The notes: a model not told the origin generated them from the letters alone. A stretch of 64,000 nucleotides of DNA from Abditibacterium sp. (GCA_965246885.1 OZ251992.1:2176001-2240000), one strand, 5' to 3'. Positions 48,161 through 50,869 are shown, counted from the stretch's first letter. A program made the numbers and translations.

Positions 48161-48697
48161 CTACTTGGCTGGTGCCGGTTTGGGCAAAAGCGGGAGAACC
48201 GCCGCTTCCAAGCTCTCGTTGGTCAGCGCGGGACGCCCGCCTCGGAAGATGGCGCGGATGACGCCTTGCCCATCCACAATGTAAGTTGCGGGCAGGCTGT
48301 CTATGTCGCCAAAACCGTTGGCCTTGGCATCGCAGAGCAGGGCGGCGGGAAAGGAGAATGTGCGCATGACCTTCGCTACCGCTTTGCGATCGTGCCGGTC
48401 GTCCACGCTTTCGCCAATCACTAAGACATCGCCCTTGTGAGCAGTGTAAAACGCCGAAAGAAGCGGCATTTCGGCGCGGCACGGCGGACACCACGTCGCC
48501 CAGAAGTGGACGACGACCACTTTACCCTTGCACGCCGCCAAGTCGAACGGTTGCCCGTCCATTTGTGGCCCGATTAAGGCCGGTGCCGTTTGGCCAACGG
48601 CGGGAGCCGCCGCGACGGGGCGGCTCCCAAGGGTGCACAGCGCGACTGCGCCCAAGCCAATCCGCGCCCAGTTGTGTTTGGAAAGAATGTGAGTCAT
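48161..48697 (-). CDS. TlpA family thiol-disulfide oxidoreductase
   Basis: Signal peptide, GKVVVVHFWATWCPPCRAEMP, LPATYIVD. Confidence 0.92.
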   Translation of the reverse strand: MTHILSKHNWARIGLGAVALCTLGSRPVAAAPAVGQTAPALIGPQMDGQPFDLAACKGKVVVVHFWATWCPPCRAEMPLLSAFYTAHKGDVLVIGESVDDRHDRKAVAKVMRTFSFPAALLCDAKANGFGDIDSLPATYIVDGQGVIRAIFRGGRPALTNESLEAAVLPLLPKPAPAK

Positions 48698-48706
48698 GGC
48701 CGGGTT

Positions 48707-49636
48707 TTAGCCGAAGTCGCGGCTGATGGTGAGTTTGAAGAGCGTGTTGGCGGTCAGTTGGTTGCCGCGCACGTTTTGGTAAATGGGGACGCCGACTTGC
48801 GCGAACACGCGCGTGCCGCCGAAGTGCGTTTCCAATCCCGGCGCGAGCAAGACGCGGTGGTAGCCACTGTCTTTGGGCGCCGAGCGGCTTCCCGAATCGC
48901 CCCTGCGATACGAGCCGATGAGTTGCAGGAGCGGCACGACCTTGGTTTTGCCCACGCGCAAGCCGGAATAGTACACGCCCGCCACCCCGTCCACTTCTGT
49001 GCCGGGATGGTAGTCGCCCCGACTGGCGACGGGCTGTTGCAGTTCGCCGTTGAGGAAGTAATTGAAGCGACTGCGTTCCGAGAAGCGGCTGGTCTTGAAC
49101 GCGCCCAACAGAACGTCGGTGCTGCCGCTTCCGATGCTCGTATCGGGGTCGAATCCCGCGTAAGAGGAGTCGCCCGTCGGAAGCTTGAGGCCATAAGTGA
49201 CGCCTGTTGACATATCCGGCGAGAAGCCGGTATAGATGCCGCGCAAGCGAATGTCGCCGATGCTGGCGTGGCGGAAGCTGACAAGGTTTCCGGTGTCGGC
49301 GTCGGTAGTGATAAAGCGGCGTTGCCAGTAAGGAACGTCGAGCATAACGCCGTTTTTGCGGTTGAACATGTACTGCGCGCCAACGGTGAAGAAGTTGGTG
49401 CGGATGCCCTTATCCGGGTTGTTGGCAGCCGGGGCGGATGAGGTGCCGCTCCGGTTGCGGTTCTGGTTCATGGTGTCGTATTCGACGTACGCCACGCCAC
49501 CGGGATGGTTGGGAAGCATGGTGCCGATAGAGACATCGAATACGCCGCATCCGCAAGCGCACGAATGAGCCGTACGCGGTGCGAGCGCCAGCAAAAGGGC
49601 GGCGCCCATTGGGGCCGTGAGAATGAATTTATTCAT
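48707..49636 (-). CDS. Probable outer-membrane beta-barrel with N-terminal CACGC motif (putative metal transporter)
   Basis: Signal peptide ending AHS, mature N-terminus CACGC, GDIRL, GLKLPTG, GSGSTD, PIYQNVRGNQL, C-terminus ISRDFG. Confidence 0.7.
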   Translation of the reverse strand: MNKFILTAPMGAALLLALAPRTAHSCACGCGVFDVSIGTMLPNHPGGVAYVEYDTMNQNRNRSGTSSAPAANNPDKGIRTNFFTVGAQYMFNRKNGVMLDVPYWQRRFITTDADTGNLVSFRHASIGDIRLRGIYTGFSPDMSTGVTYGLKLPTGDSSYAGFDPDTSIGSGSTDVLLGAFKTSRFSERSRFNYFLNGELQQPVASRGDYHPGTEVDGVAGVYYSGLRVGKTKVVPLLQLIGSYRRGDSGSRSAPKDSGYHRVLLAPGLETHFGGTRVFAQVGVPIYQNVRGNQLTANTLFKLTISRDFG

Positions 49637-49645
49637 GTTTTGGCT

Positions 49646-50290
49646 TTACAGGCGCGGGATGGCGCAACCCATTGCGGGGGCCTGCGCGCGCGGGACGGGT
49701 TTGCCCGCGACGACGGCGGCGAGGGCGTTGGCGAGGTCATGTTTCGTGGCGGCTTTGGGGTCGAAGGTTTCGTTGTCCACGCGGCCATGATAGCGGAGCA
49801 CGCCCGCGCGGTCGAAGAGGTAAACCTCCGAACTGGCGCGGCCATCGAGCATCTTCAGAAGGCTCTGATTTTGGTCAACGATGGCCGGATAGTCGAGCAA
49901 ATGGTTTTGCATGAAGCGCGCGATTTCGATGGGCTTTTGGCCGGGTGTGGCGAAAACATAGGCAACACGCAGACCCTTAGGGCTGTATTGCTTCGCCAAG
50001 TTCTTGATGCGTTCCTCGACGGCGACGACGCACGGACACTGCGTGTCGGCGAGGACAAAGAGGCCGATTTTGCCCTTGAACGAGGCTTTGGACAAGCCGC
50101 GTCCATCAAGTGTTTGGGCGGCGAAGGGCGGCATCGGCTGCCCAATGCGGGCGGTGGCAGAGGAGGAAGCGTGTGCGAAGTTTTTGGTTTCGGCTTTGAG
50201 TTGGCCGAACCCTTTTTTGGAGAAGTTGTGGGCGAGCGCGGGCGCCGCCAAGGCGCACAGCGCGGCAAGTGTGAGAATGTGTTTGTTCAT
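49646..50290 (-). CDS. Exported redoxin/AhpC-TSA family thioredoxin-fold protein
   Basis: Signal peptide, TQCPCV, LRYHGRVD, C-terminal MGCAI. Confidence 0.85.
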   Translation of the reverse strand: MNKHILTLAALCALAAPALAHNFSKKGFGQLKAETKNFAHASSSATARIGQPMPPFAAQTLDGRGLSKASFKGKIGLFVLADTQCPCVVAVEERIKNLAKQYSPKGLRVAYVFATPGQKPIEIARFMQNHLLDYPAIVDQNQSLLKMLDGRASSEVYLFDRAGVLRYHGRVDNETFDPKAATKHDLANALAAVVAGKPVPRAQAPAMGCAIPRL

Positions 50291-50291
50291 A

Positions 50292-50329
50292 GTTGACCTC
50301 GACTTTCATAGGGCGAAAGCGAGGGCAAC
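50292..50329 (-). promoter_or_regulatory. Shine-Dalgarno-sequestering hairpin directly after the RGPP codons
   Basis: Minus strand GTTG-C-CCTCG-CTTTC [GCCCTAT] GAAAG-T-CGAGG-T-CAAC; the 3' arm holds GAGGT, 5 nt before ATG 50290. Confidence 0.75.
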
Positions 50330-50767
50330 GGGTGGGCCGCGATTGGAAAAGGCGCGGGCAAAGCGGCGCGCAGCGAAGTCGCGGCGCGCGGCACACGGGA
50401 CGGCGACGAGGGTGGCGAGGCGCGCGAGGTGTGTGGGCGATACCAACACTCCGGGCATCGCTCTAAGTAGCAGCGCTAAACACTGCGCGTCGTGCGCCAT
50501 TGGGCTGTGGGCGGCGAAGTGGAAGCGCGCGGTGGGCGCGCTTTGGGAACTTCCTTCGGGGTGCGGAGCGCAGAAGCAAATGGGCGCCCCCGATGCCGAG
50601 CGCAAAAGGCGCGGCTCGTGGTGCGCCGCGTCACAGGTCGCGTGAGCGTGCCCGCCCAGTTCGCAGATGTGCCACGTCGGGGCGACGAACGAGAGCAGGG
50701 CCAGCATCGCCACGAAAAAGCGCAACTGACGCGGGAAGCGCTCGAACCAACTCCGTCCCGACAACAT
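50306..50767 (-). CDS. His/Cys-rich leader protein with C-terminal RGPP motif (DUF2946/CruR-like arrest peptide candidate)
   Basis: N-terminal hydrophobic segment; WHICELGGHAHATCDAAHH, ICFCAPH, HDAQC; ends FSNRGPPVALAFAL*. Confidence 0.7.
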   Translation of the reverse strand: MLSGRSWFERFPRQLRFFVAMLALLSFVAPTWHICELGGHAHATCDAAHHEPRLLRSASGAPICFCAPHPEGSSQSAPTARFHFAAHSPMAHDAQCLALLLRAMPGVLVSPTHLARLATLVAVPCAARRDFAARRFARAFSNRGPPVALAFAL

Positions 50768-50869
50768 GAGCACTCAGTTAAACGCTTTGGTGCCGCGCGA
50801 AAACGCCCGGTTTGCTCTGAACTGAACCGCGCAAAAGCGTTGCTACACTTCCCTTCCCAAAGGCCCGCT

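Follow-up and report, generated by a model that had tools for sequence, protein, structure and literature searches.

A conserved R[AG]PP leader and a stem anchored to its Pro-Pro codons as a probable translation switch ahead of a redoxin operon in Abditibacterium

A redoxin operon of Abditibacterium sp. (GCA_965246885.1 OZ251992.1:2176001-2240000; genome G000, 62.5% GC, G000:C1:2176001-2240000) is preceded by a leader, a conserved coding open reading frame (ORF) that ends in R[AG]PP, and by an RNA stem that is conserved as a structure, which starts at the nucleotide following the motif's second Pro codon and runs to just before the next start codon. The whole 64,000-nt stretch analysed is called the window below. 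Leader and stem very probably form a cis-acting translation switch in which a ribosome stalled in the leader melts the stem.

The leader starts at ATG 50767 on the minus strand, encodes 153 amino acids (aa), and stops at TGA 50308-50306; an in-frame GTG at 50773 is an alternative start that would give 155 aa (Table 1). An earlier note on this DNA had described a minus-strand ORF of about this size with an N-terminal hydrophobic segment and RGPP at 50341-50330 followed by 7 further codons before the stop, and all of these elements were found as described. The N-terminal hydrophobic stretch has a Kyte-Doolittle 15-mer maximum of 2.27, and AlphaFold predicts a helix over residues 12-32, with pLDDT 88-94 across residues 11-30. 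The model as a whole (pTM 0.35) has no folded sensor domain, and its low-confidence middle is too uncertain to support a metal site. The composition includes 10 His and 6 Cys. The terminal motif is not rare alone, since 78 ORFs of at least 50 aa in six frames of the whole genome end in R[AG]PP, and the case therefore rests on conservation.

The stem spans 50329 to 50292 and, as the same note had it to the nucleotide, begins directly after the Pro-Pro codons and holds the GAGGT Shine-Dalgarno (SD) sequence of the redoxin gene, 5 nt before its ATG at 50290. GAGG is paired, and the T lies opposite a C as a mismatch. RNAfold adds one G-U pair, giving 15 bp and a 5-nt loop. The fold of 50270-50360 has a free energy of -24.1 kcal/mol (z -3.4), and none of 200 shuffles was as stable. 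Under a modelled ribosome footprint, the cost of opening the start region falls from 17.4 to 6.5 kcal/mol, the latter being the genome median. Rfam gave nothing at gathering score for the seven loci searched.

Table 1. Leader, stem, and operon features, numbered from the first nucleotide of the window
Feature	Position	Strand	Basis
Leader ORF, 153 aa + stop; unnamed R[AG]PP uORF family	50306..50767	-	Conservation; third-position codon bias
RGPP candidate arrest motif (CGC GGC CCA CCC)	50330..50341	-	R[AG]PP in 49/50 representatives
N-terminal hydrophobic helix, residues ~17-31, signal anchor or signal peptide	50675..50719	-	Hydropathy, AlphaFold
H33-x-C35, His/Cys pair directly after helix	50663..50671	-	Invariant in 49/49 aligned members
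C64-x-C66, variable middle region	50570..50578	-	CxC 27, CC 10, CxxC 4 of 47 members
C96-L-A-x-x-L motif; Cys 47 residues before arrest Arg	50465..50482	-	Invariant
Stem 5' arm; first 9 nt GTTGCCCTC pair with GAGG-T-CAAC	50314..50329	-	RNAfold
Stem 3' arm, holding leader stop (50308-50306) and SD GAGGT (50300-50296)	50292..50308	-	RNAfold, SD to anti-SD
Exported redoxin (Redoxin/AhpC-TSA), CPC, C-terminal GC, His after predicted signal	49646..50290	-	Pfam, PDB
Probable outer-membrane beta-barrel, N-terminal HSCACGCG	48707..49636	-	Atlas neighbours, lead only
TlpA/ResA-like thiol-disulfide oxidoreductase (WCPPC)	48161..48697	-	Domain search

A profile search of 1.84 billion representatives yielded 50 leader-family proteins. 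R[AG]PP is present in 49 of them and RSPP in the remaining one, at a distance of 1-9 residues from the C terminus; the motif is conserved among homologs. Because the profile itself contained R[AG]PP, a metagenome scan with the WHVC and CLAxLL patterns served as a motif-independent check, and R[AG]PP was present in all 10 complete loci among the 12 found. Columns A29, H33, C35, C96, L97, A98, L101, R143, P145, and P146 are invariant in 49 aligned members. The distance from the invariant Cys to the arrest Arg is 47 residues in 40 of the 50 proteins and 48 in the other 10. N-terminal hydropathy has a median of 2.3 among 47 members, and codon differences between the leaders of four orthologue pairs fall mostly at third positions. 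The family occurs in 17 of the 26 other genomes that belong to its taxonomic family and in none of the 274 other phylum genomes searched; the closest named relative bears the source label 'Abditibacteriota bacterium'. Redoxin orthologues (56-77% identity) occur in all 12 other genomes of the genus, preceded by a homologous leader in nine and by none in two (G002 and G004), the remaining locus being uninformative because its contig ends too soon. Neither Pfam nor NCBIfam has a match for the leader, and a tblastn search of plasmids with the family protein P0011 returned six records, all partial and at chance level.

No paper on the leader family was found; the uORF list of PMC12992588, which is without organism names, may include it. 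In the part of its RAPP list that was compared, the family's motifs do not appear. The supplements of PMC9426467 and PMC9973294 have, in the parts available, no Abditibacter, Armatimonad, redoxin, or AhpC entry.

Several side observations concern the leader genes themselves. The arrest Arg codon is CGC in 27 of 27 leader loci while the other three motif codons vary freely, which reflects either codon bias or constraint. Genome G003 holds two leader copies (G003:C1:551465-551917 and 6878081-6878539), one preceding a redoxin and the other a DUF1559 gene; the stem of the second copy pairs over the AUG. At L047 (G026:C6:610873-611302) a frameshift close to a G5 run divides the leader, and no PP-anchored stem is present; the frameshift is possibly real decay, or possibly a sequencing error at the G run. 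A sigma-70 scan found no site before the leader in the window. A TAxxxT hexamer lies about 10-13 nt before the leader start (TTAACT here, within 50768-50800), TAAACT and TATACT forms occur upstream of the leaders in L011, L012, L013, and L006, and one also lies at the same position upstream of the redoxin starts in G002 and G004, which have no leader. This hexamer may be a -10 box, in which case the 5' untranslated region would be very short.

The stem was assessed in 27 distinct leader loci, of which 17 precede a redoxin gene and 10 some other gene. Duplicates (L052, L053, L061, L067, and repeat copies of counted loci), truncated loci (L010, L056, L064), and weak or false matches (L050, L054, L055) were left out. 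A locus was scored positive when at least 9 bp linked the stretch after PP (starting by +4) to positions -20 to +3 of the next ATG and when opening -15 to +3 became at least 4 kcal/mol cheaper with a footprint past the second Pro held single-stranded. This footprint was 9 nt, which we take to be the reach of the ribosome past its A site. Such a stem was present at 22 of the 27 loci (16 of 17 redoxin loci and 6 of 10 others), compared to 10 of 596 same-strand genomic gene pairs and 1 of 240 shuffled spacers; these frequencies are to be read with thresholds set after the loci had been seen, control pairs taken from crude ORF calls, and loci that are related. The 10.9 kcal/mol footprint effect at the locus in the window was reached by none of 300 shuffles. 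The five exceptions were L006 and L042, where the stem is weak, L051, where it pairs over the AUG and the following codons, and L047 and L065, which have no stem. In G002 and G004, whose redoxin genes lack a leader, the start regions are open (1.2 and 4.8 kcal/mol).

Some features of the stem were shared across these loci. First, its opening is anchored to the Pro-Pro codons. When a modelled ribosome was slid along the 24 loci with spacers of up to 100 nt, the mean opening cost held at 10-11 kcal/mol up to the third codon ahead of the second Pro and was then 9.2, 5.7, 4.0, and 3.1 kcal/mol at offsets -2, -1, 0, and +1, respectively. This agrees with the earlier proposal that a ribosome stalled at Pro-Pro covers the 5' arm and frees the start region. 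The stem start had a standard deviation of 2 nt relative to PP compared to 8 nt relative to the stop codon (24 loci, link of at least 6 bp), with the 5' search window itself set on PP. Second, the two arms have changed together. The GTTGA core occurs in three different reading frames after PP (L002/L003, L004, and L005) and is therefore a constraint on the RNA. Arm swapping replaced a column-wise covariation count because differing loop lengths kept MAFFT from usefully aligning the spacers. Cognate arms paired at -12.2 kcal/mol compared to -5.7 kcal/mol for swapped arms, and the cognate arm was the best partner in 15 of the 27 loci; none of 100,000 permutations matched, a result inflated by the related loci. 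Third, the stem survives insertions: in L004 and L057 its arms still meet over some 230 additional nt, and in L058 and L059 they enclose hairpin inserts. Finally, the PP-to-ATG distance is 39-98 nt in 24 of the 27 loci, and the shortest, 39 nt, would still give an initiating ribosome enough space. Across loci, the 3' end of the stem stays with the start codon and persists through insertions, which points to control of initiation.

The inserts have features of their own. That in L004 (1230-1500) is an approximately 200-nt repeat-like element with inverted ends inside the stem loop, and those in L057 (3439-3707) and L059 (3436-3525) are palindromes starting with GTAG, presumably REP-like; the outer stem is kept in all three.

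The SD sequence had been regarded as what the stem hides, and as a conserved target this does not extend to the relatives. At the locus in the window, SD to anti-SD pairing is worth -7.1 kcal/mol, and the 16S 3' end of this genome is the usual CCUCC. Nine of the 17 redoxin loci lack an SD yet keep the stem, and a clear SD is present in 8 of the 10 other loci. The conserved function of the stem is occlusion of the initiation region, not SD hiding. SD-like pairing in the crude gene pairs of G000 is near background (183 of 596 compared to 166 after shuffling).

The redoxin is supported by Pfam (E 1e-11) and by PDB 2cvb (E 5e-18), and its CPC rather than CxxC, C-terminal GC, and His after the signal region (by eye) are found in 17 of 17 redoxins. 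The Atlas neighbours of the probable barrel are porin-like, with PF13557 on 13% of one cluster's members, which is a lead; the protein has no Pfam or NCBIfam match. Barrel and TlpA occur elsewhere only behind the G019 leader (61% and 57% identical, among the loci fetched), and so the redoxin/barrel/TlpA set put forward in the earlier note is not supported as the defining cargo. The first gene after the leader is a redoxin in 17 of the 27 loci, DUF1559 in 7, HMA in 2, and DUF7282 in 1. Further operon genes encode DUF4198, CusF, DJ-1/PfpI-YHS, HMA, and barrel-like proteins, most cargo proteins have signal-like N termini, and no efflux pump, oxidase, sec, or yidC gene occurs in the operons read. 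DUF4198 proteins bind Zn (PMC12663993) and Ni (PMC12537917), and zinc limitation induces DUF4198 in Neisseria (available part of PMC12663993). Judged from its domains, the cargo would serve periplasmic metal handling with thiol chemistry, and it does not name the metal. An N-terminal His also begins the barrel (HSCACGCG) and DUF4198 (HDTW), and the operon's products may together form a group of metal binders with an N-terminal His. Prepilin-like DUF1559 proteins carrying DHFHP recur (L069, L071, L072, L074-L079, and L081), often beside DJ-1/PfpI-YHS, and are possible surface metal-binding pilins.

The closest known leaders include CruR and CutF. CruR (Bp2923, DUF2946/PF11162, Bordetella pertussis) is likewise the first gene of a metal operon with an N-terminal export signal, a poorly structured middle, a C-terminal RAPP-like motif (its RAPP is about 3 residues from the end), and a Cys about 47-49 residues before the Arg. 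The hallmarks of CruR are CxxC, RAPP, and the spacing between them (C90 to R139 = 49), and its homologues head operons with AhpC_TSA genes (available text of PMC9426467); it acts through Rho termination (PMC9426467), and its arrest was shown in PMC12992588. Unlike the present family, CruR needs its CxxC and uses Rho termination over a 162-nt spacer, whereas the family has C-L-A-x in 50 of 50 members and CxxC at the DUF2946 position in only one (P0021), scores below the Pfam cut-off, and carries a stem that is anchored at PP and covers the start site. Membership in DUF2946, suggested earlier, was not borne out. Against the PF11162 gathering cut-off of 23.7 bits this leader gave no match, and weak matches in 6 of 48 relatives (E 3e-4 to 0.078, best 21.8 bits) all stayed below it. 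In an alignment scan DUF2946 came up for 1 of 11 (E 0.17), in the Atlas a DUF2946 cluster ranks seventh with a score of 0.95 and 147 shared features (a lead), and a PF11162 search of the own genome gave one sub-threshold match elsewhere (E 0.07). With hhalign, nine DUF2946-type proteins of the phylum aligned to the leader with 8.7% probability and over RxPP only, and with 1.9% probability without RxPP. By the tests run, which compare sequences, the leader does not appear to be a DUF2946 member. The first CxxC Cys lies 47-51 residues from the Arg in those nine proteins, and four of the nine loci show the same footprint effect, of at least 7 kcal/mol, so the geometry is not unique to the leader family. 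Another phylum genome carries two tandem DUF2946-type RAPP leaders (L113:1264-2124).

In CutF, a metal-sensing leader, a stalled ribosome opens a stem that shields the SD (PMC9973294; bioRxiv 10.1101/2025.02.05.636593), and about 45 residues are argued to put its Cys motif at the periplasmic mouth of SecY (available part of PMC9973294). As in CutF-cutO of Rhodobacter capsulatus, the leader studied here is a predicted exported, Cys-containing protein with a proline-rich C-terminal candidate stall motif about 45 aa from its Cys motif, and a stem lies, in silico, over the downstream ribosome-binding site. CutF has CxxxC, a cleavable signal, an EF-P-tied proline-repeat stall motif, a stall prolonged by copper, and a multicopper oxidase target; the present family has RGPP/RAPP, HxC together with one invariant Cys where CutF has its Cys motif, and a stem often over an SD-less start. 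The rules for CutF-like proteins (PMC9973294) include PP in the last 15 residues, a signal peptide (here predicted), and a same-strand neighbour within 1,000 nt, all found here, and a length of <150 aa, which the leader marginally exceeds at 153 aa; several relatives have 133-148 aa. By analogy, the leader appears to resemble CruR and CutF leaders in its working, and it may descend from a leader of that type.

Similar small secreted or membrane leaders with C-terminal RAPP/RGPP were described by Fujiwara et al. 2025 (PMC12992588, available text), including SLIV_27375 and a DUF1559-upstream class, and these uORFs likewise precede thioredoxin-domain, metal-related, and DUF1559 genes. Such leaders before DsbA- and thioredoxin-domain genes are enriched, and one was shown to arrest; DUF1559 is a listed RAPP target class (112 RAPP compared to 68 AAPP, 6.5-fold; supplement file 8). 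RGPP/RAPP arrest is strong, EF-P-resistant, and without a ligand, and RAPP-like motifs alone are insufficient for arrest (PMC12992588, in the part available); arrest position and strength are treated in PMC10951233 and PMC12992588. How arrest controls the downstream genes is left unsettled by Fujiwara et al. in the available text, and the leader family suggests a PP-anchored stem. The family also shares with SecM/MifM/VemP and ApdA/ApdP a stalled ribosome predicted to disrupt an SD-hiding stem and, presumably, RAP/P arrest chemistry (PMC10987492, PMC10951233). Those leaders precede secA, secDF, or yidC and sense export, whereas here the cargo appears metal- and thiol-related and the leader has invariant His and Cys. 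The idea that the arrangement may be undescribed does not hold for the class of mechanism in view of the CutF model (PMC9973294), the RAPP/RGPP leaders of thioredoxin genes (PMC12992588), and the CruR-AhpC_TSA operons (PMC9426467), as far as the available portions go.

The genome contains a second RGPP leader (G000:C1:377233-376787, minus strand; L031:5788-6234), of 148 aa and unmatched by the profile of the first. It has two CxxC, 79 and 91 aa from the Arg, and is followed by a 626-aa protein with a weak copper-binding domain match, with ccmE and ccmF further on. A stem from PP pairs over the AUG (z -3.3), and the opening cost falls from 7.3 to 2.6 kcal/mol. A search of 26 family genomes gave no clear relative and one weak match (E 0.003).

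The proposed switch would work as follows. The N-terminal helix would take the chain to the Sec translocon. A ribosome at Pro-Pro would cover about 9 nt beyond its A site and, in the model, unzip the bottom of the stem, freeing the initiation region, which holds the GAGG SD here and an SD-less start in about half of the relatives. The footprint would lie on GTTGCCCTC, the partner of GAGG-T-CAAC, and because this lowers the opening cost, the stalled state would be operon ON. At 47-48 residues from the arrest Arg, the invariant Cys would lie at about the outer mouth of the translocon, near H33/C35 on the anchor helix. A thiophilic metal bridging Cys and His might then pull the chain and release the stall, the stem would refold, and the metal-capture genes would be OFF; our guess is that the metal would most likely be Cu, with Zn, Ni, or Co possible. 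For the stall-melts-stem switch count the stem statistics, the PP-anchored opening, the arm pairing, the insertions, and the metal cargo, and the stemless, frameshifted G026 leader and the open starts of the two redoxin genes without a leader were counted for it as well. The whole chain, with metal as the releasing signal, we hold to be evenly poised between right and wrong. Metal-triggered release is favoured over a CutF-like sign, redox sensing, coupling or export monitoring, and a mainly Rho-based output, because the arrest by RGPP/RAPP is strong and EF-P-resistant and the cargo looks like capture, not efflux. Against this explanation stand the absence, outside the one member in 50, of the CxxC that senses copper in CruR, and the CusF and HMA cargo, which also fits detoxification and favours the opposite sign. 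A more specific proposal, doubtful at present, is that the CxxC-less leader senses Zn, Ni, or Co through a split site made of H33/C35 on the anchor and the Cys 47-48 residues from the stall, and controls initiation, in a lineage that barely uses SD pairing, by gating the unfolded state of the start region.

If the sign were as in CutF, metal would prolong the stall and turn the operon ON for detoxification or buffering. CutF works in this way, with 45-aa spacing and an SD-shielding stem (PMC9973294, available part), the short PP-to-ATG distances resemble translational control, and CusF and HMA genes lie within the operons. However, a strong, ligand-free, EF-P-resistant arrest (PMC12992588, as available) suits release by a signal, the operons read lack an efflux pump or oxidase, and DUF4198 responds to zinc limitation in Neisseria (PMC12663993, as available); we consider this sign unlikely. 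Alternatively, a C35-C96 disulfide might release the stall, so that redoxins would be made when oxidative folding is disturbed. The two invariant Cys, the redoxin in first position at most loci, and the TlpA that follows here suit such a periplasmic thiol signal, which the available text of PMC12992588 raises for SLIV_27375, upstream of a thioredoxin-domain gene. The invariant His beside C35, the 10 of 27 loci whose first gene is DUF1559, HMA, or DUF7282, and the recurring metal-binding cargo make it quite unlikely.

Plain translational coupling, or an export monitor like SecM acting on an operon whose products are exported, would need no small-molecule sensing, and the stem also opens under a ribosome placed at later codons; the signal-like N termini of most cargo would fit as well. 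However, the stem tracks PP and not the stop, the fixed Cys-to-Arg spacing and invariant His/Cys are unneeded for coupling, and the operons read hold no sec or yidC gene, which leaves these readings very unlikely. In an output of the CruR type, the stall would mainly block Rho-dependent termination, with the stem secondary, as a pause site or for fine-tuning. The leader is rich in C in its 3' half (five of its final six 60-nt windows have 24-29 C compared to 12-19 G), and CruR acts via Rho (PMC9426467, available part), but a stem whose 3' end follows the start codon through insertions makes this highly improbable as the main output; both outputs could coexist. Finally, a chance ORF with a chance hairpin, as the 78 R[AG]PP-ending ORFs of this GC-rich genome might suggest, is hardly credible given the family conservation, third-position bias, and stem statistics, and an intrinsic terminator was rejected because the stem has no U tract and is not listed by the terminator scan.

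A stall-operated stem switch of this kind belongs to a class of mechanism already known, and the gain is incremental. What appears to be new, from comparison of sequences, is the unnamed CxxC-less family and the comparative evidence of a stem pinned to Pro-Pro and to the start codon whether or not there is an SD. In the available part of PMC12992588 the question of whether non-Sec genes are controlled by RAPP/RGPP arrest, and by what means, is listed as open, and the leader family provides comparative evidence for one answer: the 5' end of the stem is fixed to Pro-Pro and its 3' end to the start codon, through compensating changes and long insertions, with an SD or none. As a CxxC-less putative sensor with a near-fixed Cys-to-arrest distance, the family would be a clean test of the translocon-mouth sensing idea put forward for CutF. 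The compensated stems, loop insertions, and leader losses that the family offers as a natural series would make the coupling of arrest to output directly testable.
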